Source: Candidatus Woesearchaeota archaeon (GTDB lineage: Archaea; Nanobdellota; Nanobdellia; Woesearchaeales; JABIAG01). Taken from it: a stretch of DNA of 64,000 bases. The stretch spans positions 448,001 through 512,000 of the forward strand of contig JABIAG010000001.1 in the NCBI GenBank assembly GCA_018653365.1, read 5' to 3'. A program made the translations under genes and the position numbers. Under the pieces are notes generated by a model. That model saw nothing but the letters and a program-made list of their open reading frames with translations. It ran no database searches and had not been told where the DNA came from. Shown in pieces: positions 24,872-64,000 of the stretch. The first letter of the stretch is position 1. Each line of letters opens with the position of its first letter.

Positions 24872-24955
24872 GGGCTTATGGTCTAGCGGTATGACGTCGC
24901 CTCGACAATGCATTCGAAGTGGCGGAAGTCCCCGGTTCAAATCCGGGTAGGCCCA
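24872..24955 (+). tRNA. tRNA-Val(GAC) with 12-nt canonical intron (24908-24919)
   Basis: GGGCTTA/TAGGCCC-A acceptor; TCGCC-TC-GAC-A|ATGCATTCGAAG|T-GGCGG; TCGA/TCGA central splice helix; GTTCAAAT T-loop. Confidence 0.92.
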
Positions 24956-38505: not shown

Positions 38506-38655
38506 TTGATTTCTTAAAAGCTTTAGAGAATAATAATGTTGTTGGAAGTAAGACGCCACCGCCCGACGTCGAACGTGCAGTTCATATCCGCAACTAATTC
38601 CTGCTTCTTATAACGTAACTAACCCGTAGGTGATATAAATAATCTTCCATTTTGC

Positions 38656-40730: not shown

Positions 40731-40903
40731 TAAGAGAGGTCCTAATAATTAAACTAACTAAACTAAGTAAAGAATTAGAAGCTGAAATGCCAGAAGAAAT
40801 TAGAAAATTAAGAATGTTCTATTTTGAGGAAATTGAAGGAAAACTCTATTAATCCTGGTTGGTTGTAGAAAGTATTTTAAATGTGGAGTGTTATTTATGC
40901 ACG

Positions 40904-46600: not shown

Positions 46601-46639
46601 CTCCTTATGCTGAAGCGGAGGAGGGATGTCGTAAGCCAT
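43622..46639 (-). CDS. virB4: PrgI-like membrane domain + VirB4-type ATPase + C-terminal PD-(D/E)xK-like nuclease domain fusion
   Basis: N-terminal YDIP...EKILFGLT..Q plus 2 TM; FLNSLDFPIQI; Walker A STSGGGKS, IIDPQGEY, Walker B VIDEAW, ITQDV; C-terminal ESAEH...PDVVF...LEVETG. Confidence 0.88.
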   Translation of the reverse strand: MAYDIPPPLQHKEKILFGLTFSQLVYALPTFLICFIIAFKSGLSVEVTSTIILFILCTAAFFMFFDGKNKLKNFYNYKKNPKVSVLSQILQSIVDIKAIRNNTIIQSKSKLAILEVIPMNFMLKTDDEKEAILIGFQKFLNSLDFPIQIHITTNPISLKDHFEHIGKLANTERSNSLFESYKQFIERSIEVNGVQNRNFYIIIREKDNIEVQADVCAEKLSNIGLKVKRLTDNSLIKLFAVMKDKKVEKEIKEVAHFLFSPNEVKFFPDHFAIDNLFCKLIAVFGYPSSVEKGFLDRIIGSGDKYDISIHIQPYPIDMMMIQLNRDLQKQQADLYVDSQKGILNPSLDIKFKATKEILTDLQKGQQKLFDVSLYVMCKGRDKEEIDLLSKKVKAELDSLMIQNKPPLFQMMESYTSMLPLANNALKLTRNIHTKGLAAFFPFSSPFLNIDNDGILLGLNKNGIPLIKNIFNLANANGLVLSTSGGGKSYFTKLLIARQFMNGTDIIIIDPQGEYLAITQHYGGECITISKDSETIINPLDLMGHEYLEKRLSLMDLFQIMFKDLNELQKSILDRAIDLTYENCGITRDDYNSHEPPIMSDLFLTLSKLEKASVQQEKVTYRALLNRLQMYTERGVFGFLDRKTRINFDNNFLCFNIGNMPKQVKPVVMYLVLDYVYMKMKGTNRKKVFVIDEAWSLLQTAKESSYIFEIVKTCRKHNLGLLMITQDVADLVASKAGHAVLSNTSYTFLLRQKPAVIRSVATTFNLSQPEQDYLLSAMPGDGVLIMDNDHQELKVVASEEEHKLITTNPNELISLGEAKLPKVKDDKEDEKANIDINKPFHGAKGLTPLQINMLNNHNYVLMKCHNLESGPFPYYVKPNHPESAEHTFLVAIIAEEIRKYTKEVKCYQTKKPDVVFKNKLGQKIGLEVETGICLRENRKNKKEKFENIVRDYGKRAYIILTGNRIKNSFAKHGLKMLLRHEIKEFVQLQFSGQKNSVINSNLNRTK

Positions 46640-48666: not shown

Positions 48667-49096
48667 AACATTAAAAATAAATGAGTTAATTATACTTGTA
48701 GTGGGATTTATTGGCTGTGTTTATGGGAGAACATTTATACAAAAGCTCTTTTTTTTGATTGAGAATGAATTATTTAAAGATATGGATTTAAATTATATTA
48801 AATATCATTATGGCCCCTATAGTACTGAATTAAGAGATGCAGTTGAAGCATTGAAGAGAAAAGAACTTATTAAAGATGTGTGCATCATAATGGATGGACA
48901 TGTGGGACACTGTTATGAGTTAACGGAAAAAGGCAAACACAAATTTACTTCTTTAGATACTAAAACTAGTCGAGTGGCATCAAAGCTTAATTCTTTTTGT
49001 GATAGATATAAAGAGTATAAACCTAGTGAGTTATTAAGATTAGTATATTCCAAATATCCGCTTTGGACAGTGAATAGTGTGCTGGTAAACAACTAA
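48659..49096 (+). CDS. YwgA / DUF4065 (SocA/Panacea-like) family protein
   Basis: GRT.IQKL.FL, Y.KYHYGPYS.EL, YELTEKG, LL..VY..YP. Confidence 0.78.
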   Translation: MNKTLKINELIILVVGFIGCVYGRTFIQKLFFLIENELFKDMDLNYIKYHYGPYSTELRDAVEALKRKELIKDVCIIMDGHVGHCYELTEKGKHKFTSLDTKTSRVASKLNSFCDRYKEYKPSELLRLVYSKYPLWTVNSVLVNN

Positions 49097-50532
49097 TTAA
49101 TTTTTTTTAATTTTTTAATAATCCAAACCATTCCTTCAGTATCTAAACCGCAATACTTTAATAGGTTTTTTCTAATTTCTTCTTTGTTTTCTAGTTTAGG
49201 CTTAATATGACTATAAAAGTATAACATACTTGCATCTGAACCATTATTAATTTCAAGTTCTGAATAACTTTTTCCAGTAATTGCAGGTAAAACTTTCTTT
49301 ATTGAGTAAGACCCTTTTTGAGATTTATTATAATAATCAAACGCTCTAAACGGATCTGCTAAATCAACAATCCTATTTATTGCTTGTTCAAGCCAATCTT
49401 TATGTTCTGGAAAATCTTCAGCTAGTTTTTTCATAACACTTATCTCAAATGATTTATTAAATACTATAATATCTCCTGTGCCTTCTAGATCTGTTTTCAT
49501 TTGATCTAATAACTTAAATCGTGGGTCTTTAGTTCCTTCTGCTAAAAACTCTTTATGCTCTATTGCACCATCTTCTTGTTCAATATGCAACGAATATTGA
49601 AAAGGCATCTTCTGATAAGGCCCAGACTTATCAAAAATAGGAACTGCAGTATCAAAAGTTTCAAAATCAAAATGAAACAAAGGATAATTCAAATCATCCA
49701 AAAACAACCTGGCCTTTTCTTTATTAACCTGAACTTTATTAGTTTTAACAGCTTCAATCATAATCTTATCCTTCTCTGAAAGCTTGGTACCCTGTGGAAT
49801 ATCCTCTAAATCTTTGATGCCCTCTTCTAATAATTTCCAATAAACTCTCCAATTAGTGAGTTGTAAAACATTATTCTCTGGAAGAGTTGCCCAACAATTT
49901 TTTTTCAAAGGACAATCATAAGGTTTATTGCAGTACATAGAAATATGCATTTCGGGGGACTTATCTTGATTAATAACATCCATAAACAATTTAGATTTTT
50001 CTTCAATATCATTAATTAAACTAACTTTTTCCGTTACTTCTTCAACAATAGCTAATTCTTTGGAGTTTATTTCACCGTTTTTTACATAGTCTTTATTTAA
50101 GTAAATTAAAAAGCATTTATTTATTTTTAATCCACATTTTTCTATTACATGTTTTTGAAATGCCAAATCAGGGATATGTGGGGGTTTAGCTTTAGAAGTT
50201 GATTTAATTTCATACAAATCCCAACCCTCTTTTGTGGGTATTATTAAGTCAGATCTTACAAATAAATCATCAATCATAAAGCTTGCTTCAAATATGGTGT
50301 TGCTTTGTTCAATTAACTGTTTTGTTTTAATTAAATTCTCTTTGAAGTCAAGCCCTTTTAGATCTTTCGCATCAGGATATAATTTCTTAACATATTCTTC
50401 AAACTCATAACCTTGACTAAACTTATGTTCATCAGAAAGAGTAATCTCAGGAAGAAGCTTTTTATTAGCATGCCATAATAACCTATGACACTGCAAACCA
50501 TTTAAGTATTTGGATTTAGTTAGTAGTGTCAT
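49093..50532 (-). CDS. DUF2779 domain protein (Cas4/RecB-like nuclease + RNase H-like domain)
   Basis: LTKSKY..GLQC...LW, D...YEIKS, DFETF, PFQYSLH, SYSIKKVLP, YC.LDT. Confidence 0.85.
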   Translation of the reverse strand: MTLLTKSKYLNGLQCHRLLWHANKKLLPEITLSDEHKFSQGYEFEEYVKKLYPDAKDLKGLDFKENLIKTKQLIEQSNTIFEASFMIDDLFVRSDLIIPTKEGWDLYEIKSTSKAKPPHIPDLAFQKHVIEKCGLKINKCFLIYLNKDYVKNGEINSKELAIVEEVTEKVSLINDIEEKSKLFMDVINQDKSPEMHISMYCNKPYDCPLKKNCWATLPENNVLQLTNWRVYWKLLEEGIKDLEDIPQGTKLSEKDKIMIEAVKTNKVQVNKEKARLFLDDLNYPLFHFDFETFDTAVPIFDKSGPYQKMPFQYSLHIEQEDGAIEHKEFLAEGTKDPRFKLLDQMKTDLEGTGDIIVFNKSFEISVMKKLAEDFPEHKDWLEQAINRIVDLADPFRAFDYYNKSQKGSYSIKKVLPAITGKSYSELEINNGSDASMLYFYSHIKPKLENKEEIRKNLLKYCGLDTEGMVWIIKKLKKIN

Positions 50533-50538
50533 TTTGAT

Positions 50539-50862
50539 TTATCGAAGTCTTTTCTTCATATGTTCAGCTGCTTGCTTTTCAGCTTCTGCTGTTGCTATTT
50601 TTGCTGCTTTTTGTGCTTCTGCAACTTCACCTTTTGGACTTATTGAAAGATTTACTTTTTGAACTTGTTCAGCCTCAACTTTTGCACCAAAATTAACTAT
50701 CTGAATATCTAATCCTCCGCCAACTTTTCCTTTTACTACGGCGGACAATTCTAATTTAATAGGTTCGGATAGTTCCCAATCAGCCCCCAATCCTTCAACA
50801 GTCGATTCTTTTGTTTTCTTAATAAAATCTGCCAAAGAAGTTTCAACTTTATCTTCACTCAT
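50539..50862 (-). CDS. Trypco2-like small protein
   Basis: SLADFI...IKLELSAVV....GGGL.I.IV..G......VQKVNLSI.P; ATGA overlap with hsdM. Confidence 0.55.
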   Translation of the reverse strand: MSEDKVETSLADFIKKTKESTVEGLGADWELSEPIKLELSAVVKGKVGGGLDIQIVNFGAKVEAEQVQKVNLSISPKGEVAEAQKAAKIATAEAEKQAAEHMKKRLR

Positions 50863-52358
50863 TTTTCATCTCCACTTAAATCATCAGAAATTGATTTTAA
50901 CTCTTCCAATGCACTTTCCAAGTCATCAACTAACTCTTGTGCAATTATGTTTGGTTCTGGAAGATTATCCAAGTCATCTAAACTCTTATCTTTAATCCAG
51001 AATAAGTCTAGATTCGTTTTATCTCGTTTTAGAATTTCTTCATAAGTATATTTTCTCCATCTTGCGTCTGGACTTTCTTTCGAATAAAGTTCTTTTCTTT
51101 CGTGTCTGTTATCTGGATTGTAACATTCAATAAATTCTTTTAAGTCATTATATTTAAATGGATTTTCTTTTGGTGTAAAGTGCATATTCGTTCTTAAATC
51201 ATAGAACCATATTTCTTTTGTTTGTGCATCTGGAGATGCTCCTTTCTTTTCAAAGAATAGAACATTTGCCTTTACTCCTGGTTTATAAAATATTCCTGTT
51301 GGTAATCGCAAAATAGTATGTAAATCACAAGTTTCCATAATCTTCTTTCTTACTGTTTCAGAACCTCCTCCTTCAAATAATACATTATCTGGAAGAACAA
51401 CGGCGGCGACACCCTTTATTTTTAGAATGCTTCTAATGTGTTGTAAAAAGTTTATTTGCTTGTTACTTGAAGTTACCCAAAAATCATCTCGTAAGACATT
51501 CAAGTCTTTTGTTTTCGCTTCACCTTCATCTGTAACGAATTTTTCAGAAGACTTTTTCCCAAAAGGTGGATTTGTTAAAACCATATCAAATATCGGACCA
51601 GGATTTTCTTTTAATGCGTCAGATCCTGCATCAATAGGACTTTCATCACTTGCAAGTCCGTGAAGATAAATGTTCATAACGCAAAGACGTGCAGCCATAG
51701 GTACAATTTCGACACCAGAAAAGCTTCCTGACTTTAATTTAATTAGTTGATCTCTATCTAATTTATAATGTTTCAATATAAAATTATAAGCAGAAAGTAA
51801 GAATCCTCCAGTTCCACAACAAGGGTCGTGAATTTTGTATGTTTCTTTTCCAGGAGGTTGTGGTTTCATAACTTTAACCATTGCATCAATTAACGGTCTT
51901 GGAGTGAAATACTGTCCAGCTCCACCTTTAACATCAGAAGCATTCTTTTCTAAAAGTCCTTCATAAGCATCTCCTTTTGTATCTGTATCGAGAGAAAGCC
52001 AGTTTTCTTTTGCAATAAGTTCTACAATGAGTTTTTTTAGTTTAGCAGGATCTTGAATTTTATTTTGCGATTTTCTAAATATAACTCCTACAATTCCTTT
52101 TTCTTTTCCAAGAGAATTCAGCGTTTTTAGATATTGTTGTTCTAATTCAACACCATCTTTGCTCAATAAAGTTTCCCAATTATATTCATTTGGAATCTTT
52201 GATTTTTTATTGAAGGGAGGTTTTGTTCGTTCGTCGTCCATCTTTAAGAAAAGAAGAAATGTTAATTGTTCTACATAATCACCATAAGATAAACCATCAT
52301 CTCGTAGAATACCACAATAATTCCATAATTTATTTACTATTTGTTTTGGATCAGTCAT
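50859..52358 (-). CDS. hsdM: Type I restriction-modification methyltransferase subunit M
   Basis: KLW..C..LRDDG, GQYFTPR, DPCCGTGGFL, TNPPF, LPTGIFY. Confidence 0.96.
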   Translation of the reverse strand: MTDPKQIVNKLWNYCGILRDDGLSYGDYVEQLTFLLFLKMDDERTKPPFNKKSKIPNEYNWETLLSKDGVELEQQYLKTLNSLGKEKGIVGVIFRKSQNKIQDPAKLKKLIVELIAKENWLSLDTDTKGDAYEGLLEKNASDVKGGAGQYFTPRPLIDAMVKVMKPQPPGKETYKIHDPCCGTGGFLLSAYNFILKHYKLDRDQLIKLKSGSFSGVEIVPMAARLCVMNIYLHGLASDESPIDAGSDALKENPGPIFDMVLTNPPFGKKSSEKFVTDEGEAKTKDLNVLRDDFWVTSSNKQINFLQHIRSILKIKGVAAVVLPDNVLFEGGGSETVRKKIMETCDLHTILRLPTGIFYKPGVKANVLFFEKKGASPDAQTKEIWFYDLRTNMHFTPKENPFKYNDLKEFIECYNPDNRHERKELYSKESPDARWRKYTYEEILKRDKTNLDLFWIKDKSLDDLDNLPEPNIIAQELVDDLESALEELKSISDDLSGDEK

Positions 52359-53571
52359 TATTATTATATCTCACTAACTTGCCATCAAAGGCAGATTTTA
52401 AAATTGATTTTCGAAAAGTTTCAACTTTAAGTAAAGATGCATTAACAGTTTCTTCGAGTTTATCTATAACTGAAAATTGAATCTCTATTTCTTGAACGAC
52501 TTGTTCTCGAACCGAACTATCTGGTGTGGGAAATATCATGTTTGTAAGTATATTTAAGTTGATATTCTTTTGAGCAGTTGCAGATGCTTTATTATCCAAA
52601 ATTTGTTGAACAAAGTCTAAATAATATTTAACAAATAAAGTTGTGTATTTATCTTTTGAACAAAATCCTACAACGCTGTCGGGAAAACACGCATCAATAT
52701 CTAATACTGCGGTTTTTGCAATGTTTGCTGCAATAGTTATACAAAGAGTTCCTTTTGACCATAGTTTACTTTGTTTTAAACCTATTTCATTGTATGTTTT
52801 AGAATAGTTATTTAACTTCCCCCCATTTGCACGTGATATTTCTCCGGTTTGAACAAAAGGATATTTGCCGTTAAATAAAACAGGATCATTTCTTGGTCTG
52901 TGTTTTGATTTTCCCCTCCCAAAAGTTCCTAAACTTGATAATGGCCCCGTATCCCAATTTAATGGTATTTTCAATATAAAATTGAATAAATTTATTTCTT
53001 GAAATTCTTCTTTTGAAAACCTACCTCCCTCGAAAGATGATCTTAAAATACTTTTTCTATAAATTTCAAGTTTTTTCTTAATTGTTTGCAAACTCTTAAT
53101 GGCAGAATCTAATCTTGTAAATTGTATTTCAATCTCCCCAACAAGATGTTTTTGCTTTGGTAAATCAATCTTTTTATTTTTATTTATGGGAAATATAAAA
53201 TCAAGATTTTGATATACTGATATATAATATCGTTTGTGCGTACTTGAATTTATTTGTTTAGAAGCCATTTGATAATAAACATATTTTATAGATACATCCG
53301 TTCGTTTTAATTTTAATATTTTCATTGCACTTGACTTTACTTTGAAAGGAAAATCAACAAACTTTAAATTAGTTGTAAAATCATCAAAAATAATAACTGG
53401 CACATTTTCATAAATACCTTCTGTGTCGTCTGTATACCCTTTGATAAATCCTTTATTAGCAGTTAAAACGGGTATGTTTGTTTTCTCTTTTTTTATTGGA
53501 CTTGTAACTATAAATGGGTTTGGCTGGTCATAATCCAAGACTTCTTTTAATTTTAAAGTTTCACATTCCAT
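52351..53571 (-). CDS. hsdS: Type I restriction-modification specificity subunit S
   Basis: Two TRDs, each followed by a conserved helical spacer (Q..LV.EIE.QF..LD; RKSIL.S.F.G). Confidence 0.92.
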   Translation of the reverse strand: MECETLKLKEVLDYDQPNPFIVTSPIKKEKTNIPVLTANKGFIKGYTDDTEGIYENVPVIIFDDFTTNLKFVDFPFKVKSSAMKILKLKRTDVSIKYVYYQMASKQINSSTHKRYYISVYQNLDFIFPINKNKKIDLPKQKHLVGEIEIQFTRLDSAIKSLQTIKKKLEIYRKSILRSSFEGGRFSKEEFQEINLFNFILKIPLNWDTGPLSSLGTFGRGKSKHRPRNDPVLFNGKYPFVQTGEISRANGGKLNNYSKTYNEIGLKQSKLWSKGTLCITIAANIAKTAVLDIDACFPDSVVGFCSKDKYTTLFVKYYLDFVQQILDNKASATAQKNINLNILTNMIFPTPDSSVREQVVQEIEIQFSVIDKLEETVNASLLKVETFRKSILKSAFDGKLVRYNNND

Positions 53572-53575
53572 ATCT

Positions 53576-56335
53576 TCACACACTCAACTCATTTAGTTCT
53601 TCGATTATTCCATTCAATCTGTCTCCAAAGACTTGATGTGCTTTTCCAAGCCCACCCATTTGGGCAAGTGTTCCTAATTCAAAGTCGTCTGTTGTGATTT
53701 CAACTGATTCTGAAATGTGTTCTTTGATTTTTTCAAGCCAGTTCAATTGTTCTTGACTAAATGAAACTCCCATTGCTTTTTGTTTAGAAAGCCAGTTTGA
53801 AAACCTTTCATTAACTGTTACAACATATGGTTCTAATGTTTCATCTTTACCAAGTTCAAATCTTAATAATGATACGAAATCTACTGGTTTTCCTTTTGCT
53901 GAACCGTGGACTTTTCCATCTTCTAATTGTTTGTAAGCACTCCATAGTTTTGGAGATGTTAAACTATAAGGGGGTGTTCTAATCTTTTCAACCATTTCTT
54001 TAAGGTCAGAATACTTCAAATTCTTATTATTGTAGAATGCTTGGATAATGGTTAGTTCATCTTTGTTTTCTTCAATAAACTTCTCAAACGATTGAATAGT
54101 TTGTTTCGCCTTCTCTGTCGATTCTTCTGAGAAACCTGTTTCTAAGACTTCATCAACTGAAACGTTATCAATTATTACTTCTGTTTCTTTCTTAATCTCT
54201 GGAAGTCTTGTTAGTAGTTCTCCGTGATTTAAGAATTCTGTAATTGCAACATTTCTGGATTCTGCACAAACTTCATTTAATTGATCTGTTGTAACGTCAT
54301 CTCCAAACTTTTCTCTTGCTTTTGTAAGATTATTATCCGGGTTGATTGCTTCAACAAATAACTTTGCAAAGAATTTCAAGTCTGCTCCGCCTGATAATTT
54401 TTCTATCTCTGCTTTTTGTGTGTCATTTAGTTTCTTTTGTAATCGAGATAATCTGCTTGCCATTGAAGACAAGTCTTCATCTGTTGGGTCGCCATATCTG
54501 ATATTTTGTAATAATTTTTCAAATGAAACTCCAAGTTTTTGTTCTAATGGCTTACTTTCTGATAACTCGTGATCTGCATCTGTGACACCAACTGCATCTA
54601 CAATTATGAAATGGTCTTTTGCCATTGCATCAGGAGTTACAGCCTTAAAGTCATCATTGGGTATTACTCGGACTCCTCGTCCTTTCATCTGCTCAAAATA
54701 ATTGCTGCTGTGAATATCTCTCATAAAGAATACTACTTCCAATGGTTTAATGTCCGTTCCTGTTGCAATCATATCAACTGTAACAGCAATTCGTGGGTAG
54801 AAACTATTTCTAAATTGTTGAATTAAATTCTTTGGAGTTTCTCCTTCTGTTTTGTAAGTGATTTTAACAGCAAACTTATTTGATTCTCCAAATTCTTCTC
54901 TAACTATTTGAACTATTTCTTCTGCGTGATTATCATCTTTTGCAAAAATAAGAGTTTTAGGCATTACTGTTCTACCTGGAAATATTTCTGTGAATAATTT
55001 GTCCTTGAAAGTTCTAACGATGGTTCTAATTTGATTGGTTGCAACTACTGACCTATCTAGTTTTGAACTATCATAGACTTCTGCTTCTTCAAGTGTTTCC
55101 CATCGTTTTCTTCTGGTTCTTTTATCTCTTTTTTGAATAACAGTTCCAGCATCAATAGTAGAACCATCTTCTGTAATTTTAGTTTTAATTCTATACACAC
55201 CAAAATCAACATTTACTCCATCTGCAACTGCTGCTTCGTGTCCATACTCCATAACCATATTTTGATTAAAGAACCCGATAGTGTGCATTGATGGTGTTGC
55301 TGTAAGTCCAAGTAAGAAGGAATCAAAATAATCTAATACTTGTTTCCATTGGTTATAGATTGAACGATGGCACTCATCAACAATAACTATGTCAAATTCT
55401 TCGATAGGAATCTTTTCATTATATTCAACTTTTTTCATTTCGTCAGGACCTGTTTCAAAACCAGACCTTTCTTCTGCTGATTCGTCAAGTTCTTCTCCTC
55501 GAAGCATAGAATAAACTCTTTGTATAGTTGAAATACATACTTTACTTGAACTATCAATAAAGTTACTTGTTAATCTTTGAACGCCATATATTTCTGTAAA
55601 TTTACGACCATCATCTGGTGTTGTGAATTTTTGGAATTCTGTTTCTGTTTGTTCTCCTAAATTTCCTCTATCTACGAGGAATAATATTCTTTTTGCTTTG
55701 GCATTTTTTAGAAGCCTGTAACAAATATTAACTGCTGTGTAAGTTTTACCGCTTCCAGTTGCCATTTGAAGCAATGATTTTGGTTTCCATAAAGCGAGAG
55801 AACTTTCTGTATTGATAATTGCTATTTTTTGGGCAGGCCAAAGAGTATCATTATTTAATTCATGAGTTGTTGATAACCGTTTCCTAAAAGTTTCACGACC
55901 TTCTTCAAGCCAGTTCTCACAAGTTTCCGGTCTATGAAAACTAAATACTGCTCTACTTTGAGGTTTTGGATCCCAAAGATTTGTAAAATGAGTTTCCGAA
56001 CCTGATGTTTCATATACAAAAGGGAGAGGTAATGGGACACTTTTGAATTGTTCTGGAAACCCTTCAGCATATCTGCTTGACTGGATTTCCTTTCCAGTTA
56101 ATGTTTCGCCTTCTTTTTTAGCTTCAATAATTCCACAAGCAATGCCATTTACAAATAGAACATAATCTGCTTCGCCAACACCTTGTCCCATATGAAAGTA
56201 TTCTACCGCTATGCCTTTCGCGGCCCTTATGTTGGCATTTTTAAAATCTTGAATAATCCAACCTGCTTTTTTTAGCATTGGATTAATAACTTTATGGCGC
56301 GCTTTATCTTCGGGAGTATGGATATATTCAGTCAT
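53576..56335 (-). CDS. hsdR: Type I restriction endonuclease subunit R (EcoAI/EcoEI-like)
   Basis: ADY.L...IEAKK nuclease motif, ATGSGKT, DECHRS, TATP, QMKGRG.R. Confidence 0.95.
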   Translation of the reverse strand: MTEYIHTPEDKARHKVINPMLKKAGWIIQDFKNANIRAAKGIAVEYFHMGQGVGEADYVLFVNGIACGIIEAKKEGETLTGKEIQSSRYAEGFPEQFKSVPLPLPFVYETSGSETHFTNLWDPKPQSRAVFSFHRPETCENWLEEGRETFRKRLSTTHELNNDTLWPAQKIAIINTESSLALWKPKSLLQMATGSGKTYTAVNICYRLLKNAKAKRILFLVDRGNLGEQTETEFQKFTTPDDGRKFTEIYGVQRLTSNFIDSSSKVCISTIQRVYSMLRGEELDESAEERSGFETGPDEMKKVEYNEKIPIEEFDIVIVDECHRSIYNQWKQVLDYFDSFLLGLTATPSMHTIGFFNQNMVMEYGHEAAVADGVNVDFGVYRIKTKITEDGSTIDAGTVIQKRDKRTRRKRWETLEEAEVYDSSKLDRSVVATNQIRTIVRTFKDKLFTEIFPGRTVMPKTLIFAKDDNHAEEIVQIVREEFGESNKFAVKITYKTEGETPKNLIQQFRNSFYPRIAVTVDMIATGTDIKPLEVVFFMRDIHSSNYFEQMKGRGVRVIPNDDFKAVTPDAMAKDHFIIVDAVGVTDADHELSESKPLEQKLGVSFEKLLQNIRYGDPTDEDLSSMASRLSRLQKKLNDTQKAEIEKLSGGADLKFFAKLFVEAINPDNNLTKAREKFGDDVTTDQLNEVCAESRNVAITEFLNHGELLTRLPEIKKETEVIIDNVSVDEVLETGFSEESTEKAKQTIQSFEKFIEENKDELTIIQAFYNNKNLKYSDLKEMVEKIRTPPYSLTSPKLWSAYKQLEDGKVHGSAKGKPVDFVSLLRFELGKDETLEPYVVTVNERFSNWLSKQKAMGVSFSQEQLNWLEKIKEHISESVEITTDDFELGTLAQMGGLGKAHQVFGDRLNGIIEELNELSV

Positions 56336-56553
56336 CTTGATTGGCCTTTAATTGTTTTTTTCATATAAATTTTAAATTGTTTATAATTTAATATTGTGTG
56401 TGTTTTCAAATTTTATTCATAATTAACCATTTTGTGACCTGTGATGAATATTAATCCTTGAGATTTATAAATATTTACTGTTTTTAGCGTTTCGTTCTTC
56501 TTCCGTAGTTTTTGTTAAACTGCTATAAATAAAACCATAATATTTCTTAATTC

Positions 56554-57624
56554 ATGAAAAAATGCAGAGCTTGCGATAAAGAACTTGAAAAAAACGAATT
56601 TGATTTTTGTTCTACTTGTTTAAAATTTCATGATAAGAACTACAATAAACAAAAGAAAAAAGAGCTTTATAACAAATATGAAGAAATTCATAAACCAAAA
56701 GTAATAGATTTATTTGCAGGTTGTGGAGGATTAAGTTACGGATTTCACAGTGCAGGTTTTAATGTTGTTGGATTCATAGAAAAATGCAAGACAGCAATTG
56801 ACACTTTTAAAAAGAACTTTCCTAATGCCATTCATATAGGAACAGATATTAAACAAGTAAAAAACTCAGAACTTCTAAAATACAAAAACAAAATTGACAT
56901 AATTACTGGAGGACCGCCATGTCAAGGGTTTAGTTTTTGCGGAAAAAGAAATCCAAAAGATAAAAGAAATCAGTTATACAAAGAATTCATAAGAATAATT
57001 TCTATAATCAACCCCAAAATTGTTGTTATTGAAAACGTTCCAGGAATAAAGAGTATGAAAGACCTGGATAAAAGAAGCATTCTCGATAAAATACTTAAAG
57101 AATTAATAAGTTTAGACTATTCTGTAAGCCATAAACTTCTTGTTGCTTCAGATTTTCAAGTTCCACAAAACCGAAAAAGGTTAATCATAATAGCAAAGAA
57201 AAATGAATTCTTCCCAGAACCTTCAAAAAATAAGGTAACTGTTATTGAAGCAATAAAAGATCTGCCAAAAGAAGGATCTGATTTAAATGGACATGTTTTA
57301 TTTCAAACAACACAAAAAGTAATCGAAAAGATAAAAAACACCAAACAAGGTGGCAAACTTTCTGACAAATACAACTTTTGCAGACAAAGATTATATGCTA
57401 ACAAACCTTCAAAAACAATAACAACAGAACCCATATTCATTCATCCAGTACATGACAGATTCTTAACACCAAGAGAACTAGCAAGACTCCAAAGCTTTCC
57501 AGATTCTTTTGTATTTATGGGAACTAAAACTTCGATACTTAAACAAATTGGAAATGCGGTTCCACCAAAACTTGCTTTTGCAATTGCTCAAAAGATAAGA
57601 GAGGTTCTAGAAAATGATAACTAA
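56554..57624 (+). CDS. dcm: C5-cytosine DNA methyltransferase with N-terminal Zn-finger
   Basis: CRAC...CSTC extension; DLFAGCGG, GGPPCQGFS, ENV, QNRKR, RE.ARLQSFPD, QIGNAVPP. Confidence 0.95.
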   Translation: MKKCRACDKELEKNEFDFCSTCLKFHDKNYNKQKKKELYNKYEEIHKPKVIDLFAGCGGLSYGFHSAGFNVVGFIEKCKTAIDTFKKNFPNAIHIGTDIKQVKNSELLKYKNKIDIITGGPPCQGFSFCGKRNPKDKRNQLYKEFIRIISIINPKIVVIENVPGIKSMKDLDKRSILDKILKELISLDYSVSHKLLVASDFQVPQNRKRLIIIAKKNEFFPEPSKNKVTVIEAIKDLPKEGSDLNGHVLFQTTQKVIEKIKNTKQGGKLSDKYNFCRQRLYANKPSKTITTEPIFIHPVHDRFLTPRELARLQSFPDSFVFMGTKTSILKQIGNAVPPKLAFAIAQKIREVLENDN

Positions 57625-57916
57625 AGAAACCTTTGTTGTTTTCGTATTCTTTGTAATAATCTTTCCCTTAAGTGCGGCGCTATGGTACAAATCTGGAGTG
57701 AATTTTGCAGAATTGTTAATCGTGTATGCAATTAATACTGCCATAATTCTTCTCTACATTAGCGTCGCACTTATCACCCATAAATTACGATTAAAAAAAC
57801 AAAAACCATTGATTGAACCAGAATATGATGAGTTTGAGGACGAATTAGAATGTGAAGATAAAGAATTTGAGGGTTTTCGCAATCTTTTCTGTAATGCAGA
57901 AGGAGGAAAAAAATGA
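57614..57916 (+). CDS. two-TM membrane protein with acidic tail
   Basis: GAGGT RBS; overlaps dcm stop. Confidence 0.65.
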   Translation: MITKETFVVFVFFVIIFPLSAALWYKSGVNFAELLIVYAINTAIILLYISVALITHKLRLKKQKPLIEPEYDEFEDELECEDKEFEGFRNLFCNAEGGKK

Positions 57917-58362
57917 ATGAACAAAAACCTGAAGAAAGTTTGAGTTTTAGTAGAACGTTTCAACCAGAAGATCTTGATGTAATGGTTGATAGAACTTTAG
58001 CATTATTTGACACTGGCGATTTACAAGAAAGTAATGAGTTAGCAGTTTACAATATGCATAACCTTTTGCAAAATGTAGCAGAATACGCAAAAAGTGTTAG
58101 TAGAAAACTATCTGGAAGAGAAATAACCTTAATGCAAAACTCAGCAGGAGTAATGGTAACATTAGCTGAAAAAGCAAGAGAAGTACAAACACCACAAGAC
58201 TATTTGAGAGGAGTGGCCGAACTAATGGATGAAAGCGTTGTAGGAACAAATCATGCAAGAAACAGTATAAACTTACAACAAGGAAGCCTGGGAGAATATC
58301 GGTTTTCTACAGATGTGAGAGAACAAGTTGAAGGAATGAAAGCCCAAGGTGTGTTAGAATGA
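57913..58362 (+). CDS. hypothetical protein
   Basis: GGAGG RBS; ATGA overlap. Confidence 0.65.
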   Translation: MNEQKPEESLSFSRTFQPEDLDVMVDRTLALFDTGDLQESNELAVYNMHNLLQNVAEYAKSVSRKLSGREITLMQNSAGVMVTLAEKAREVQTPQDYLRGVAELMDESVVGTNHARNSINLQQGSLGEYRFSTDVREQVEGMKAQGVLE

Positions 58363-59378
58363 AAGACGCAAGACAAGAAGCAGATGAGCTTCTTGAACAA
58401 TTTTCCCATAGGTTAAAGCAATATACTGCTAAAGACAACATTACCGTAGATGATTGTGATGATTTTATGGCTGATGTTGGCAAGTTTGGTATTGCTATAA
58501 CCTCATTGTTAAAAGATTTAGGGTTTAGTAATGGACAAATAAATGATTTTAAATCAGAACATTTAGATGATTTGCTAAGGTCTAGTGATGTAAGTTATGA
58601 CCAAGTTGTAAATGATCCAAGATTTAGAAACCTTTTTTTTGGTGAAAAAATAAGACCTGGAAGTCATAAATTACTTACAACACTAACAAGTTTAGTTTTA
58701 GGTAGTTCATTATTAACAAATGTCCTACTTTACAATAGACTACCTCAAGAAACAATAGGAAAAACACGCACTGAATATAAAACAGTTTATCTAAACCCCT
58801 TTCAATCACGACTTTTTGACACAGTTTATCGACTCAGCAGTAAACAAATAAGAAGACGACCTTTTGTTTCTCGTGGAGATTGGAATCAACAAGTAAAAAG
58901 TTATGCAAATTTTCTCTTTGATAAACCACAAGAAAAAGACCTTGAAATTGTAGATAAAATACTGCGTAATTATGTAAAAAACAGGTTAAAAGGCGAAGAA
59001 TCAGAACAAAGCTTAGATGAAGTTATTGATTCATATGGTGGAGAAACACTTACTGCCAACTATGTTTTTGATCAAAGATCTGATTGGACAACTTACATGA
59101 AACATATGGAAGTTCAAAGATTAAAAGAAAAATTAGAAGATTACCTTGATACGGAAGGAGAATTGAAACTTAGAGGACATTGGCGAACAGCGGTCTGGAA
59201 GTTTTCAGAAAAGTTTTATGACGATTATTACCTTGATGCCAATAAACGGTTAGAAGTAACCGACCTTCTTTTACGTGAATTACATGGAAGCTACCAACAT
59301 GAAAAAATAACTATGGTCCCAGCAACCATTTGGTTAGGTCAAGGATTCGTAATCAAATATTCTGGAGGTAAACAATGA
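58359..59378 (+). CDS. hypothetical protein (one central hydrophobic segment)
   Basis: 339 aa; ATGA overlaps at both ends. Confidence 0.65.
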   Translation: MKDARQEADELLEQFSHRLKQYTAKDNITVDDCDDFMADVGKFGIAITSLLKDLGFSNGQINDFKSEHLDDLLRSSDVSYDQVVNDPRFRNLFFGEKIRPGSHKLLTTLTSLVLGSSLLTNVLLYNRLPQETIGKTRTEYKTVYLNPFQSRLFDTVYRLSSKQIRRRPFVSRGDWNQQVKSYANFLFDKPQEKDLEIVDKILRNYVKNRLKGEESEQSLDEVIDSYGGETLTANYVFDQRSDWTTYMKHMEVQRLKEKLEDYLDTEGELKLRGHWRTAVWKFSEKFYDDYYLDANKRLEVTDLLLRELHGSYQHEKITMVPATIWLGQGFVIKYSGGKQ

Positions 59379-59695
59379 AAATAGCCTTGCTCTTTTTGTT
59401 TTTGTTATTAATGCCAGTTGTATTAGCAGAAATCGATTTTGACCAAGAATTAACAGATGAGGAAGAAGAACAATTTGACGCAATACTTGCCCCAGTAATG
59501 AAAATCTACAGTTTCATAAGGTACGCAGCAACAGTTATTGGAGTTTTAATGCTGGTGTTTGCAGGAATAACCTTTGTAACTGCAGGTGGAGAAATGGCCA
59601 AAAAAGAAAAAGCTAAGAACATAGCAACAGGAGTAATAATTGGCCTTATTGTAATCTGGGTAGCACCATTAATCGTCAAATATGTTTTTGGCTAA
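59375..59695 (+). CDS. VirB2/TrbC-like T4SS pilin
   Basis: Signal peptide, then TM-GITFVTAGG...KEKAK....VIIGL-TM pilin hairpin. Confidence 0.8.
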   Translation: MKIALLFLFLLLMPVVLAEIDFDQELTDEEEEQFDAILAPVMKIYSFIRYAATVIGVLMLVFAGITFVTAGGEMAKKEKAKNIATGVIIGLIVIWVAPLIVKYVFG

Positions 59696-59697
59696 AC

Positions 59698-61743
59698 ATG
59701 AAAAAAGCACTATTTGTTTTACTTTTAATAATAATCCCTTTAGCTAACGCTTTTGAATGTGAAACAACAACAGATAAAAATTATTGTGAAATTATACAAA
59801 GTTCTTCTTTAAGCGAAGTTGATAAAGACTCTTTTTATTCTGCTTTGCTTTATACCAATCATTCAGAACCAGATCATCGTTTTATAGAAGATTATAACCT
59901 TAATGTTATAGTTAATGATTCTCCTTTCGATGCTGAAGTTAAAAGCTCCAAATATATAAAGAATGCTTGGGTTTCTATATTTAGTGTTTTTCCTTCTGTT
60001 TATGAAAACACAACATTATATGTTCCAAACAAAATTAACGTATTAAGTAGTTATGATTATGAAATTGATTTACCAAATGATTATAGTGGTTCTTACCCTG
60101 ATACAAGTAATGGAGATTGTGCAAGAACATATGACCTTGTAAAGAACGAATACAGGTTTAAACAATCATTTAATGACGAACTTAAAAGTTCAAACAAACT
60201 AATAGAAGTTGACGTTAATATAGACGGCCAATTAAAAGCAGAGCTATCAATAGAAACAGAAGTAAAGATAAGTCAGTATCACTGGAAAAGATACTGTTGT
60301 GTAAGAGGAAAAGACGGTTGTAAAGAATACTGCCACAAATGCGACCAGTACAAAACAAGTTATGAAACAGATAATGTTGAAGTAGAAGAAACAAAAGATA
60401 TAACTTTATACATCAAAGATCCAAGTATAAAAATAAACTTTCTTGATTCTTATTACAATACAACAAAAGGTAATTTTACAGCTTCAGATTATACAAGCTT
60501 TATTATTAACTTTCCAAAATCATATGTTAAAAACAATTTGTACCGTTACGAAGTCATTTTTGAAAAAAAGCCACTATACTTTGCATATTTAAAAGCAAAA
60601 GAAATTAACCAAACAACACATAAAAACCTTTATCTCTCAGATAACACATTCTTTGTAAATAACGCAAGTTATTGTAATTATGTTATACAAGATTATTTTT
60701 CTAAAACTGAAGGTTTTGTTAATGTAGAAGTTGAAAGACAAGAATTAAAAAAATTAGAAACCGAAGAAAGAAACTTCAAGATTGCATTGCTCTTTAAGAT
60801 TTTAATTCTTATTGGTATTTGTTACGTTGTTTATGTTATACTTCGTTCCAAATTCAAAAAAGTTGGAATATTTGTTTTATTAATTCTAATTTGTTTGCCA
60901 ACAGTATTAGCAGAAGAAGAATGCGGATTAACAAACCTAGCATCATGCATCCCAGAAAAAATGTATGAATACTTCATTCACATACTCAATTTGCCATTAG
61001 CACCCCTTCTAGGGACCGTTTCTTCATTACTTACAGCAAACCCCTCAACAAACATCTTTTATCATCTGTGGGCAATTATGAGATATATTATAAGCTTCTT
61101 TTACGTATTCATCTTTATTTATGCAGGATACATTTTCTTAACTTCAAACGCAAACCCCATAAAAAGAGCACAAGCAAAAGAACTATTAAAAAACACATTC
61201 ATAATGATTGTACTGATCCAAGGATCTTTTTACTTATATGATTTAATATTATATTTAAGTAGTGTTATGAACAGTACAATAATCGGGATGATAGATCCTC
61301 ACTTTTTCATGCTTACAGCGGATAATCTATTAAATATTGGTTTGGAACTTGTATTCTCGGGAACTTATCTAATTGTGTTACTTTTCACAGTCATCTTATT
61401 GACCCTTCGCTTCATGCTAGTAAGCTTTGGAGTAGTACTCTTGCCCTTAAGCATATTTTGTTACTTCCTACCACCACTAAAACAATATGGAAAGTTTTTG
61501 CTGCACTTATTGGGTAGCTTCATATTCGTAACATTCTTAGACCTCTTGATAATTTTAGGATGCTCAATGCTAATCAATGTTCCACTATTTGAAAACTTCA
61601 AAATAGTAGTAATGATAGTATGCTTCATCCTCGTTGATTACACATTAATATTACTAATAAAATTTGCAATGAACGGAGCAAGTAACAACCCCATTAAAGA
61701 AGACCTTGGTCAGGCTATGAAATACGTGGCGTTGTTGGTTTGA
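59698..61743 (+). CDS. VirB6/TrbL-like polytopic membrane protein with large N-terminal extracellular domain
   Basis: Signal peptide, about 340-aa soluble domain, then multi-TM region with AGY.FLTS..NP.KR..AK, LRF.LV..GVVL.PL....YF.P. Confidence 0.7.
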   Translation: MKKALFVLLLIIIPLANAFECETTTDKNYCEIIQSSSLSEVDKDSFYSALLYTNHSEPDHRFIEDYNLNVIVNDSPFDAEVKSSKYIKNAWVSIFSVFPSVYENTTLYVPNKINVLSSYDYEIDLPNDYSGSYPDTSNGDCARTYDLVKNEYRFKQSFNDELKSSNKLIEVDVNIDGQLKAELSIETEVKISQYHWKRYCCVRGKDGCKEYCHKCDQYKTSYETDNVEVEETKDITLYIKDPSIKINFLDSYYNTTKGNFTASDYTSFIINFPKSYVKNNLYRYEVIFEKKPLYFAYLKAKEINQTTHKNLYLSDNTFFVNNASYCNYVIQDYFSKTEGFVNVEVERQELKKLETEERNFKIALLFKILILIGICYVVYVILRSKFKKVGIFVLLILICLPTVLAEEECGLTNLASCIPEKMYEYFIHILNLPLAPLLGTVSSLLTANPSTNIFYHLWAIMRYIISFFYVFIFIYAGYIFLTSNANPIKRAQAKELLKNTFIMIVLIQGSFYLYDLILYLSSVMNSTIIGMIDPHFFMLTADNLLNIGLELVFSGTYLIVLLFTVILLTLRFMLVSFGVVLLPLSIFCYFLPPLKQYGKFLLHLLGSFIFVTFLDLLIILGCSMLINVPLFENFKIVVMIVCFILVDYTLILLIKFAMNGASNNPIKEDLGQAMKYVALLV

Positions 61744-61808: not shown

Positions 61809-62225
61809 ATGTTGGATTCTGTTATTATGTTAAATTTCATAAATGAACTGATTATTAATAATGTAGATACTTTTGCAGTTATGTGCACAACATTATTTCT
61901 TATTATAATCGGAACGCCTCTGATTTCTTTCAAAGGGGGCATTCCCCGGATTGCTGGAGTTATAATTAGAAAAGGAAAATCAATCGCAGTAGCAGTCCTG
62001 TTAGCAATCATTATTTTTTTTGTAATTGCTCCTCTTTTAAATCTATTATTTAGATCTCTGATAAAGGCTTTTGTTGATTTTACAATACCTGTATTGATTG
62101 TTTTTGCAGGTCTAACTTTATGGGAGTGGGATAAAAAGATGCGATGGGATTATAAATGGTATTGGATCCCAGTTCTATTGGTAGGTATTTTGTTTGTTAT
62201 CCTTGAGATATTTTTAATAAATTAA
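61809..62225 (+). CDS. membrane protein
   Basis: 138 aa, about 4 TM segments. Confidence 0.6.
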   Translation: MLDSVIMLNFINELIINNVDTFAVMCTTLFLIIIGTPLISFKGGIPRIAGVIIRKGKSIAVAVLLAIIIFFVIAPLLNLLFRSLIKAFVDFTIPVLIVFAGLTLWEWDKKMRWDYKWYWIPVLLVGILFVILEIFLIN

Positions 62226-62381
62226 TAATACCCAAAGTTTGTTAATTAAATAATACGTAATACTGAAAAGAATAATGTATTTAGATATGAAAAGGCGAAG
62301 CCTCTTTTAGTTAATACATTAAGGGGAGTTCCTTTTATAAAATAGAAATATTTATAGTCCACATTGAATATCTTGATTATT

Positions 62382-64000
62382 GTGAAGAGACCGCTTAATC
62401 ATGTTAAAGAAACAGAATCTTTTGCCTATGTGGAAGATACTTTAAAAGAATGGGTGCCCAACAGATTAAATAATGATTATGGGATAGACTATGATATTCA
62501 AATATTTGAAAAAGAAGAAGGAACAGAATTAAATTTTGGAGCTCAAATAAAATCAACAGAATCATCAAATGTTGATAAAGAACACTACAAATATAGTTTA
62601 GATACAGAACACATTGACTATTTCTTCAAACAAAATAGGCCCATACTCTTAATAGTATATGATATTCCTAGTAAAAATGCTTTCTGGGTAGTAATGCAAG
62701 ATTATGTATGGGATGTCCTAAATAAAGAAAATCCTAATTGGTTAAATCAGAGATCATCAACAATCAAACTACCGCTTAGGAATCTGTTAACAGATAAGAA
62801 AGCAATCAAAATAGCTGTAAAGTCCTGTTTTAAACGAATCGCAGTAAAAAACTTCCATAATTTATCAATAGAAGATGGGTTGGGGCTAAATGAAACTTTA
62901 GAAGACATTGAAAAACTTAAAGCATTTGAAGAAAAAACTGAATATGTTCTAAACAATAAAAAAATACTCCTAGCACAAAAACTAGCAATTACTGGTGATT
63001 ATGAGACTGTATTCAAAAAATTAAATGAAGTTTACTCACAACAAAAAAATGATATTGCACATTTAAGAGCAATTATTGCACTTGTAACATATAGTAATAT
63101 TGCAATAGAAGAAGAAAACAAGAAATTAGTTCAATTAGCAGACGAAGGTCTAAAAATAGCAGAACTGCTTGATGAGAAAATCGGGTTTGCAATACTATTA
63201 GTCTATCGAGCACAAGCATTACACTTAACGCTCACAAGAAGAATAACAGAAAGTCTATATGCAAAAAAAGCAATGGGGCACATGGATATTGCATATATTA
63301 TAAACTTAGAATCAGATAAAAAGATAAAAGAATTAAATGAAGCACTCACTAAAGTAAGCCTTGAAGTAAGGGAAGCATTTAAAATCTTAATACAATCGCA
63401 AGATTACTTTACTCTCGCATATCTATTAACAATTAATTTACATATGACTACGATGACAATACAGCAGATAAGTGTGATTGTAGGGAAGGATAAATTCATA
63501 GATGAAATAAAACAAAAGGATATTCTAGCACAACATCTGATTAATTTGATAAAGGTATTCAATGACGAAACGCTTGAAATAAATATTAGAGAATCTGTAG
63601 CAAATTATTATTATTATACAAGGGGTGCAGAAGATGCACTAATAGTAATAGAACCTGCTTTAAAGATAGCAGAAAAATTAAAAGACCAACCACAATTCAA
63701 AAAGATTAAAATGATGATTAATACTTTCAAAGCCAGACCCGATCCATATCAGGTAGAAGATAGAAAATTTGAAGAACTTTCGATAAAAGAAGTAAAAGAA
63801 CTAACTATAAAGCATATAGAGTTAATGGGAGAAAATCTAAGTGATGGTTCAGACAATAGTAGTGCATTAAACTGGGGATTAAAAGATATGGATCCTGAAC
63901 CCTATCTTAAGACTTGCGAAGAGCTTCATATTCATTATTCAAGCACAAGTTACTTAGGACAAATGACTGGAGTTCATTCAATAGGATTTAAATTATTGTG
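62382..64000 (+). CDS. DUF4365 (restriction-endonuclease-fold) protein with helical C-terminus, 3' end off window
   Basis: Not in ORF track. GTG start MKRPLNHVKETES...NNDYGIDYDIQIFE...GAQIKST. Confidence 0.8.
   Translation, partial: MKRPLNHVKETESFAYVEDTLKEWVPNRLNNDYGIDYDIQIFEKEEGTELNFGAQIKSTESSNVDKEHYKYSLDTEHIDYFFKQNRPILLIVYDIPSKNAFWVVMQDYVWDVLNKENPNWLNQRSSTIKLPLRNLLTDKKAIKIAVKSCFKRIAVKNFHNLSIEDGLGLNETLEDIEKLKAFEEKTEYVLNNKKILLAQKLAITGDYETVFKKLNEVYSQQKNDIAHLRAIIALVTYSNIAIEEENKKLVQLADEGLKIAELLDEKIGFAILLVYRAQALHLTLTRRITESLYAKKAMGHMDIAYIINLESDKKIKELNEALTKVSLEVREAFKILIQSQDYFTLAYLLTINLHMTTMTIQQISVIVGKDKFIDEIKQKDILAQHLINLIKVFNDETLEINIRESVANYYYYTRGAEDALIVIEPALKIAEKLKDQPQFKKIKMMINTFKARPDPYQVEDRKFEELSIKEVKELTIKHIELMGENLSDGSDNSSALNWGLKDMDPEPYLKTCEELHIHYSSTSYLGQMTGVHSIGFKLL

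Follow-up and report, generated by a model that had tools for sequence, protein, structure and literature searches.

A minimal type IV secretion module with an Ig-headed VirB6-like protein and a C5 methylase on a putative integrated island of a woesearchaeal genome

In the genome of a Candidatus Woesearchaeota archaeon (assembly GCA_018653365.1, three contigs of together 1.09 Mb, with an archaeal small-subunit (SSU) rRNA), we have analysed a stretch of 64,000 nucleotides (contig JABIAG010000001.1, positions 448,001 to 512,000), here termed the window, which harbours genes related to type IV secretion system (T4SS) components. All coordinates refer to positions in this window and features located past its end are given in window-equivalent positions. 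The genome is labelled G000, two congeners are labelled G001 and G002 and a relative from a different family G026. The centre of the locus is a predicted operon on the plus strand (56554-61743) with six intact open reading frames (ORFs) encoding proteins of 356, 100, 149, 339, 106 and 681 residues. A preliminary description of the stretch had drawn attention to the overlapping or abutting junctions between these genes, which are confirmed with exact coordinates in the list of ORFs, where successive overlaps of 11, 4, 4 and 4 nucleotides are followed by a gap of 2 nucleotides between the gene of the 106-residue pilin and that of the 681-residue protein. The same description had placed a gene for a VirB4 ATPase about 10 kb away on the opposite strand, with restriction-modification (R-M) cargo in between. 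Both statements hold, with the VirB4 gene located 9.9 kb from the start of the methylase gene that opens the operon, and with Pfam matches identifying a type I hsdR/S/M set in the intervening region.

The fifth gene of the operon (59375-59695, plus strand) encodes the 106-residue precursor of a VirB2/TrbC-type T4SS pilin, which matches the Pfam family PF18895 (T4SS_pilin) with 42.4 bits at a cut-off of 26.6 and reaches 27.7 bits with TrbC, where the cut-off is 27.9. Weak matches extend to the pilin-like families pLS20_p028 and Mbov_0395 of NCBIfam. The protein consists of a signal peptide, an acidic stretch and two hydrophobic helices. Its downstream neighbour (59698-61743, plus strand) encodes the 681-residue protein, for which an AlphaFold2 (AF2) model based on 59 homologous sequences shows a predicted local distance difference test score (pLDDT) of 83. 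In this model, an exported cysteine-rich part with two immunoglobulin (Ig)-like domains (residues ~19-350) is connected by a transmembrane (TM) anchor (363-384) to a polytopic VirB6/TrbL-like domain (~390-681). The ectodomain contains tandem Ig-like sandwiches (84-348), which resemble adhesin domains (Z 6-7). Residues 432-662 of the polytopic part were aligned by VIA-align to TrwI/VirB6 of R388 (8rt9_F, 7o3v_G and 8rtd_L) with Z-scores of 10.1, 9.9 and 9.6 over 215-225 residues, and these three VirB6 structures are the top three matches. The best of them comprises 224 of 272 residues at a root-mean-square deviation of 5.3, and Foldseek assigns a probability of 0.98 to the VirB6 match. The VirB6-like part opens with a pilin-like hairpin, which is recognized by the T4SS_pilin family at residues 451-507. 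By sequence, the 681-residue protein shows only a weak precomputed match to TrbL_3. A profile of the 59 homologues did not find any meaningful match among PDB sequences, Pfam scans of three homologues carrying precomputed TrbL_3/DUF8186 labels did not reproduce these labels at E ≤0.05 and PF19590 has no match anywhere in the genome. Since the Ig-like and VirB6-like halves are separate genes in many relatives, the 681-residue protein is a fusion.

The displaced ATPase gene (43622-46639, minus strand) encodes a VirB3(PrgI)::VirB4 protein with a conserved extra domain at its C-terminus. It matches P-loop_TraG (98 bits), DUF87 and AAA_10, retains the Walker region and carries the PrgI (VirB3) part fused at residues 8-77 (27.1 bits, cut-off 27). 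Its best NCBIfam matches are the Mbov_0397 ATPase of an integrative and conjugative element (ICE; 329 bits, E 6e-98) and the CD1110 VirB4 (307 bits, E 2.7e-91), with both scores remaining under the respective equivalog cut-offs of 590 and 325. No other ATPase of VirB4 type is encoded in the genome. The C-terminal domain (residues ~840-1005, window 43622-44120), which was not matched by any Pfam family, is kept in 50 DPANN homologues with the conserved positions E880, H884, D911, E925, E927 and K942, which form a PD-(D/E)xK-like pattern. The minimal mating-pair module of VirB2, VirB4 and VirB6 that the preliminary description had proposed is recovered in these matches, namely by the sequence of the 106-residue protein (PF18895), by that of VirB4 and by the fold of the C-terminal half of the 681-residue protein, which models as a VirB6 on account of its resemblance to TrwI (Z ~10). 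A VirB3, fused to VirB4, is present in addition. Other parts of conjugation systems were not found. The best whole-genome match to the VirD4/TraG coupling protein family PF02534 reaches 10.3 bits (E 0.14) and is located elsewhere, FtsK/SpoIIIE has no match above cut-off in the genome and neither a VirB1 hydrolase nor a PrgL/VirB8-like protein was recognized. Among the Pfam matches of ORFs of at least 89 residues between 38.7 and 66 kb there is no relaxase family, with the only hints being NikA-like genes of ribbon-helix-helix type and the conserved nuclease-like tail of VirB4. One of the former is an ORF of 68 residues (~64316-64520, plus strand), which shows a weak precomputed NikA-like match.

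The organization of related loci was characterized in a scan of species genomes, which yielded 79 loci, of which 73 were surveyed with phmmer and jackhmmer, with denominators varying by feature. The titles of the homologous loci name Woese-, Pace- and Nanoarchaeota, in agreement with an origin from DPANN. The pilin gene is located directly upstream of the VirB6-like gene in 61 of 66 loci, and in 55 of 57 a VirB4 gene of equal orientation is found downstream, which abuts its neighbour in 33. Its position on the opposite strand was found only in the genus described here (G000 and G001). In the 73 DPANN loci, the pilin, the VirB6-like protein and VirB3/VirB4 constitute the core. Transcription factor B (TFB) paralogues are found near VirB4 in 15 loci. 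In relatives, VirB4 is followed by such a paralogue, with ~28% identity to the core TFB, and by a conserved gene of small size (L016:4304-5399, L017:1439-2484, L018:6448-7487), neither of which is present in the island of G000. An integrase is encoded within 10 kb in 15 of 39 loci.

The preliminary description had asked for a survey of this kind, with an eye to whether the genes are single-copy core genes at a fixed locus. The distribution is instead patchy. The 681-residue protein was found in 10 of 40 relatives from the order, and its pairwise identities do not track kinship, with values of 63% and 39% within the same genus and 40% in another family. Among 201 genomes from the order, 24 encode a protein that scores above the cut-off of the pilin family, and several genomes contain multiple divergent copies of the module. 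In CAZCGN010000001.1 (L027:1-15213), two divergent operons of the order Dcm, pilin, VirB6 and VirB4, one of them also with a homologue of the 100-residue protein, are placed back to back around two fragments of integrase genes, and a third VirB6-like locus is located on another contig of the same assembly (L045). The occurrence in a quarter of the relatives, the mismatch between identity and kinship and the linkage to integrases all argue against a vertically inherited chromosomal importer and support an accessory module borne by mobile elements.

The operon starts with the gene of a C5 DNA cytosine methylase (Dcm) of 356 residues (56554-57624, plus strand; PF00145, 254.9 bits, E 1.7e-75; TIGR00675). 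The alignment to PF00145 covers nearly its full length (model positions 2-323 of 324) and motifs I, IV, VI, VIII and X are all present in the form of FAGCGG, GGPPCQGFS, ENVPG, QNRKR and GNAVPP. At the N-terminus, a CxxC-x13-CxxC segment has the appearance of a Zn-ribbon. Its relatives in the PDB include M.HaeIII, M.HhaI and the catalytic domain of DNMT1. No restriction partner is encoded in the operon. The proposed tie between the methylase and the T4SS genes is substantiated by the neighbourhood survey, in which Dcm counts were taken from phmmer matches only, as jackhmmer drifted to other methyltransferases (57 hits). A Dcm gene is found upstream in the same orientation in 12 of 52 loci, in 8 of which it is separated by no more than 300 nucleotides from the next gene of the operon. 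Orthologues head the same operon elsewhere, and complete operons of the order Dcm, p100, pilin, VirB6 and VirB4 with overlapping junctions were found in other DPANN genomes. The methylase is thus a recurrent although optional member of the operon, which leaves no room for a restriction partner.

The preliminary description had presented the 100-, 149- and 339-residue proteins as candidate new components, which stands for the first, since it recurs with the module, and does not extend to the other two, which count two and three clusters of homologues and are missing from most loci. The 100-residue protein (p100; 57614-57916, plus strand) contains two TM helices (residues 6-24 and 36-54) and a charged tail that ends with the motif FRxLF. 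It was not matched by any Pfam family and has 23 unannotated clusters of homologues. In 11 of the 52 loci with sufficient flanking sequence, a homologue directly precedes the pilin gene, and 16 loci possess one overall. The aligned sequences share two TM helices and a charged linker, which is followed in 10 of the 16 by a C-terminal (L/A/G)FRxLF motif. Because of its recurrence directly upstream of the pilin, we regard p100 as a real candidate for a new component and as a putative conserved accessory subunit.

The following two genes encode an acidic soluble protein of 149 residues (p149; 57913-58362, plus strand) and a probable bitopic membrane protein of 339 residues (p339; 58359-59378, plus strand). 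For p149, there is no match in Pfam or NCBIfam and only two clusters of homologues were detected in 5.8 billion proteins. Its fold was sought in an ESM Atlas model, which has a pLDDT of 0.43 and provided uninformative structural matches. For p339, three clusters were found in 1.84 billion representatives. In an AF2 model of middling confidence (pLDDT 66), a bundle of three helices at the N-terminus precedes a hydrophobic helix (104-125), which is conserved, and the C-terminal region is winged-helix-like. The best matching folds are generic helical bundles (Z 7.7) and, over residues 242-339, winged helices (Z ~6), while structural matches in the Atlas all have TM-scores below 0.33. An assignment as a VirB8-like subunit was not adopted, as no NTF2/VirB8-like fold was listed among the matches of this model, whose middling confidence falls short of an exclusion. 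One homologue of p339 (P0125) resides next to a NikA-like gene at its 3' side and to the gene of an N6/N4 DNA methylase; the element in question carries an integrase and contains neither pilin nor VirB6. Both p149 and p339 are found together upstream of the pilin only in G000, G001 and a single metagenome contig (L109). In comparison with G001, the ratio of nonsynonymous to synonymous substitution rates (dN/dS) is between 0.05 and 0.22, at saturated dS, for five of the six operon genes (p100 was excluded) and amounts to 0.10 for p149, which shows that these five genes are under purifying selection. The two proteins are thus best read as a rare, lineage-specific two-gene cassette that is probably kept by selection and stands outside the general machine. 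A gap of 65 nucleotides separates the operon from the gene of a protein with four predicted TM helices (p138; 61809-62225, plus strand). Neither this protein nor u235 was retained as a conserved part, as no homologue of either is present at the 79 surveyed loci.

Transcription of the operon presumably initiates at a TATA box (56524-56531, plus strand) with the sequence TATAAATA, which is centred about 26 nucleotides upstream of the ATG of Dcm. Because of this short distance, which fits a leaderless archaeal transcript, we infer that the first gene would be translated without a leader. Shine-Dalgarno sites of a GGAGG-like sequence, which match the 3' end of the 16S rRNA (...GGATCACCTCCT), are located ahead of the third gene, encoding the 149-residue protein, and ahead of the fifth gene, encoding the pilin. 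In a crude set of ORFs from the whole genome, 271 of 684 neighbouring pairs on the same strand are no more than 5 nucleotides apart and nine runs consist of at least six tightly joined genes. The tight joining is real, yet ordinary for such a compact genome.

The operon and the VirB4 gene are part of a region that ends at a tRNA gene. A tyrosine integrase (64585-65802, minus strand; PF00589, 53 bits) starts 30 nucleotides from the 3' end of a tRNA-Ser(UGA) with an intron of 22 nucleotides (65833-65940, minus strand), which was missed by ARAGORN with default settings and by Rfam and detected only with aragorn -i. At the other side, a displaced remnant of the 3' end of the same tRNA (38553-38595, minus strand) constitutes a candidate left attachment site. 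Its core is the GC-rich 12-nucleotide sequence ACGCCACCGCCC (plus strand), equivalent to the last 12 nucleotides of the tRNA, which has only two occurrences in the 1.09-Mb genome, one at 38553 and the other at 65833, where tRNA-Ser(UGA) has its 3' end. The similarity partly extends into the T-arm, and no repeats of 16 or more nucleotides were found between the candidate borders. Beyond the tRNA follows the gene of the core TFB, which is 98% identical in G002. In this congener, a homologous remnant is located about 1.5 kb from the tRNA, with small nucleotidyltransferase/HEPN-like genes in between; the island is missing there, although the site is not a clean empty one. In G001, a different integrase (28% identity) is found at the same tRNA. 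The tRNA-Ser(UGA) next to the core TFB thus appears to be a hotspot of integration, with the relevant positions being L004:2833-2940, L023:9100-9186, L024:3169-3268 and L022:8878-9050. Because the border repeat is unique, remnant and tRNA are 1.5 kb apart in G002 and another integrase occupies the site in G001, the intervening ~27 kb (38553 to ~65940) are best read as an insertion at this hotspot, probably an integrated mobile island. In this population the island is stable, as the same context was found in all 24 other contigs examined that carry the locus.

Besides the secretion genes, the region contains variable defence cargo identified by Pfam matches (49093-56335, minus strand), which consists of a DUF2779/Cas4-like nuclease, a Trypco2-like gene and hsdM, hsdS and hsdR. 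In G001, the interval between VirB4 and Dcm measures only 2.9 kb and is occupied by other genes. The hsdS gene (52351-53583) encodes 410 residues here and 324 in another assembly of the same species (L110:4738-5712), at equal lengths of the flanking genes, which suggests a variation of the specificity subunit between strains. The DUF2779/Cas4-like nuclease (49093-50532) is 73-81% identical to its counterparts in G026 (L019:12901-14310) and G002 (L025:8230-9654), and the copy in G026 resides beside an integrase of 47% identity and a locus in which pilin and VirB6 are disrupted, suggesting that cargo may be exchanged between these islands. Downstream of p138, a DUF4365-domain protein of 609 residues (62364-64000 within the window, ending at 64193, plus strand; 77.8 bits) belongs to the cargo of the island and has its own TATA box, and the 68-residue ORF with the NikA-like match is located between its gene and the integrase. 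The left part of the island contains an Nmad3 (nucleotide-modification associated) gene and a gene of an S-adenosylmethionine (SAM) methyltransferase at 38750-39589 and 40859-41593, and a homologue of the SAM methyltransferase adjoins VirB4 in G003 (L018:7767-8858). Outside the island, a tRNA-Arg(UCG) with an intron of 11 nucleotides (24872-24955) was likewise detected only with aragorn -i.

Taken together, we consider it probable that the operon encodes the surface and membrane half of a minimal type IV secretion machine of the kind found in monoderms, related to MPF-FATA systems and similar to Ced and Ted, which is located on an integrated mobile island of about 27 kb, with the methylase protecting transferred DNA, p100 serving as accessory subunit and p149 and p339 constituting a cassette of the lineage. 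This interpretation draws on the identity of the genes, the fold match, the conserved synteny, the patchy, integrase-linked distribution and the purifying selection, while DNA as the substrate, the direction of its transfer and the roles of the methylase and p100 are presumed. In such a machine, the operon would give rise to one probably leaderless transcript from the TATA box at 56524, whose genes would be translated in a coupled manner. The pilin would be exported, its signal peptide cut (VLA|EIDF) and the mature protein assembled on the VirB6-like platform, with energy supplied by the displaced VirB3::VirB4 ATPase, whose nuclease-like C-terminal domain is a candidate for a DNA-processing activity. 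Contact with the partner cell would be made by the VirB6-fused head with its two Ig-like domains, and the FRxLF tail of p100, on the cytoplasmic side, may dock a partner located there, a role that is proposed from the layout of the protein. Finally, the solitary C5 methylase would modify the DNA of island and chromosome and in this way presumably protect transferred DNA beforehand from cytosine-sensitive restriction.

Several observations weigh against this interpretation. Neither a relaxase, a coupling protein, a replication gene nor an oriT was recognized. The match to VirB6, with a Z-score of 10, is below the level that would be safe for helical bundles on structure alone, and in our own searches sequence profiles did not reach any significant VirB6 in PDB or Pfam. 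The methylase is found at only about a quarter of the related loci and is thus optional, and the single transcription unit is deduced from the spacing of the genes only. As for the island, its left border consists of a core of only 12 nucleotides with degenerate flanks, the region is mosaic, with parts found on another contig in G002, and the same locus and context in all 24 other contigs, which originate from other samples, do not show any sign of recent excision.

The cassette matches two previously described groups of systems part for part. One of these is the T4SS of Patescibacteria (candidate phyla radiation, CPR), which was detected in 2,417 of 3,035 assemblies and is thus nearly universal and often located near oriC (Quinonero-Coronel et al., 2025; PMC12102498). 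Shared features include an MPF-FATA-related VirB4, PrgI/VirB3, a VirB6-like protein, a PF18895 pilin near virB4, the usual lack of a relaxase and the ultra-small and host-dependent nature of the organisms (PMC12102498). In contrast, the present system is archaeal, its occurrence is patchy (10/40), it resides on an integrase-bearing island, it contains a VirB3::VirB4 fusion, of which none was found in PMC12102498, its VirB6 carries an Ig-like head and its operon is headed by a C5 methylase and p100. The other group comprises Ced of Sulfolobales and Ted of Thermoproteales, which are described as domesticated systems, encoded on the chromosome, whose imported DNA is used for repair (Beltran et al., 2023; PMC9905601). 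These share the trio of a VirB2-like pilin, a VirB6-like channel and a single VirB4-like ATPase, with neither relaxase nor coupling protein. As in CedA and CedA1, homology to the pilin is found in the N-terminal part of the VirB6-like protein (PMC9905601). Like TedC, the pilin has a cleavable signal peptide and, as in Ced (CedA2), there is a small extra protein with two TM helices. This likeness is drawn from the list of parts. Unlike Ced and Ted, the module is accessory, linked to integrases and present in multiple copies in some genomes, and the best sequence matches of its VirB4 are ATPases from ICEs of Mollicutes and Firmicutes.

A wider resemblance is found to archaeal integrative-conjugative elements and Sulfolobus conjugative plasmids, with a tyrosine integrase at a tRNA-type site, VirB4, VirB6 and VirB3, no relaxase and cargo of R-M and defence genes (Krupovic, 2019; PMC6563490). 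Paralogues of TFIIB beside T4SS genes are known from such archaeal elements (PMC6563490) and were also found in the 15 related loci mentioned above, but not in this island. Those elements pair VirB4 with VirD4/TraG and often contain genes of type IV pili, whereas here a VirD4 is missing and the pilin is of VirB2 type. At the level of families, the best matches are to MPF-FATA systems of monoderm bacteria (Mycoplasma ICE Mbov_0395/0397, C. difficile CD1110, pLS20 and PrgH/I/J of pCF10), although scores are sub-equivalog and a VirB1 hydrolase, a PrgL/VirB8-like protein, a coupling protein and a relaxase were not recognized here. Finally, the SPEARE-type giant proteins of Nanohaloarchaeota, also DPANN, combine Ig-like adhesion domains and a T4SS component across one membrane anchor (PMC10266531), with the difference that about 75 Ig domains are fused to a VirB4-like ATPase there and two to VirB6 here. 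The literature searched did not yield any account of a cassette of VirB2, VirB6 and VirB4 from Woese-, Pace- or Nanoarchaeota. Novel features are the Dcm and p100 that repeatedly head the operon, the p149-p339 cassette, the fusion of an Ig-like head to VirB6, which is displayed by a model of high confidence, and the island borders as delimited at a tRNA-Ser.

These comparisons also bear on what the machine might do. It could be an apparatus by which a symbiont contacts its host, either taking up DNA or nucleotides or delivering proteins, with the Ig-like head acting as host adhesin and the methylase marking self DNA, which would set it apart from imported DNA. We grant this proposal a real though minor chance. 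It is in line with the lack of a recognizable relaxase or coupling protein and with the Ig-like ectodomain fused to VirB6, and it has parallels in the CPR system, which is mostly devoid of relaxases and whose components were essential for epibiotic growth of Southlakia in a study cited by PMC12102498, in Ced and Ted, which import DNA with the same trio (PMC9905601), and in the nanohaloarchaeal giant proteins, whose joined Ig-like repeats and VirB4 domain are proposed to act on hosts (PMC10266531). Such an apparatus is at odds with the position of the island at a tRNA hotspot and its lack in a congener. The module is patchy within the order, linked to integrases and present as multiple divergent copies in several genomes, and a selfish element therefore fits better than an organelle essential for the lifestyle. 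Decay of the system would be a different explanation for its unusual layout, in which case an inversion and the insertion of cargo would have parted VirB4 from pilin and VirB6 and inactivated the machine. Indeed, 55 of 57 related loci have VirB4 after VirB6 in the same orientation, and it is found on the opposite strand at a distance of 10 kb in this genus alone. The copy in G026 is clearly disrupted, as inserted genes interrupt its VirB6 and a VirB4 is missing from the vicinity. With all genes intact in G000, G001 and 24 further contigs, dN/dS well below 1 and VirB4 retaining its Walker region and the conserved residues of its C-terminal domain, we give this explanation hardly any credence for the locus described here.

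Two further proposals concern the first genes of the operon. According to one, the methylase, p100, p149 and p339 would form a separate module for DNA modification, defence or anti-defence, which merely abuts pilin and VirB6 and has no role in secretion. In this respect, it is pertinent that the homologue of p339 in the element devoid of pilin and VirB6 is accompanied by an N6/N4 DNA methylase and a NikA-like gene, that the C-terminus of p339 is winged-helix-like, that Dcm, p149 and p339 are missing from the majority of related T4SS loci and that the island is rich in defence cargo. We nevertheless see only a small chance for it, since p100 and Dcm head operons of pilin, VirB6 and VirB4 in several unrelated genomes, with overlapping junctions between which additional genes would not fit, the p149-p339 pair stands directly upstream of the pilin also on the independent contig L109 and the five aligned homologues of p339 do not share an invariant Asp or Glu in the C-terminal domain and thus do not display a catalytic signature of nuclease type. 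The other proposal, to which we assign a slim chance, would go beyond the preferred secretion machine on a mobile island by assuming a DPANN-specific minimal T4SS with methylation built into the machine. Methylase and p100 would then be true subunits, the FRxLF tail of p100, on the cytoplasmic side, might bring either the methylase or VirB4 to the VirB6 channel, with DNA being modified upon leaving or entering the cell, and the nuclease-like tail of VirB4 might replace the relaxase.

To our knowledge, the ways in which DPANN archaea exchange DNA among themselves or with their hosts are largely unknown. The described locus provides a well-delimited example of a type IV secretion module on an integrated island and it displays its constant parts, which include the pilin, the Ig-head/VirB6 protein and the VirB3-VirB4 protein, whose tail is nuclease-like. 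In addition, it draws attention to two extras that recur, one being the C5 methylase and the other a small membrane protein with an FRxLF tail, both of which are directly accessible to experimental tests. Should the machine be able to move DNA with neither a relaxase nor a coupling protein, it would offer a simple model of what conjugation-type transfer minimally requires, and it would also constitute a route by which defence systems may spread among ultra-small archaea.

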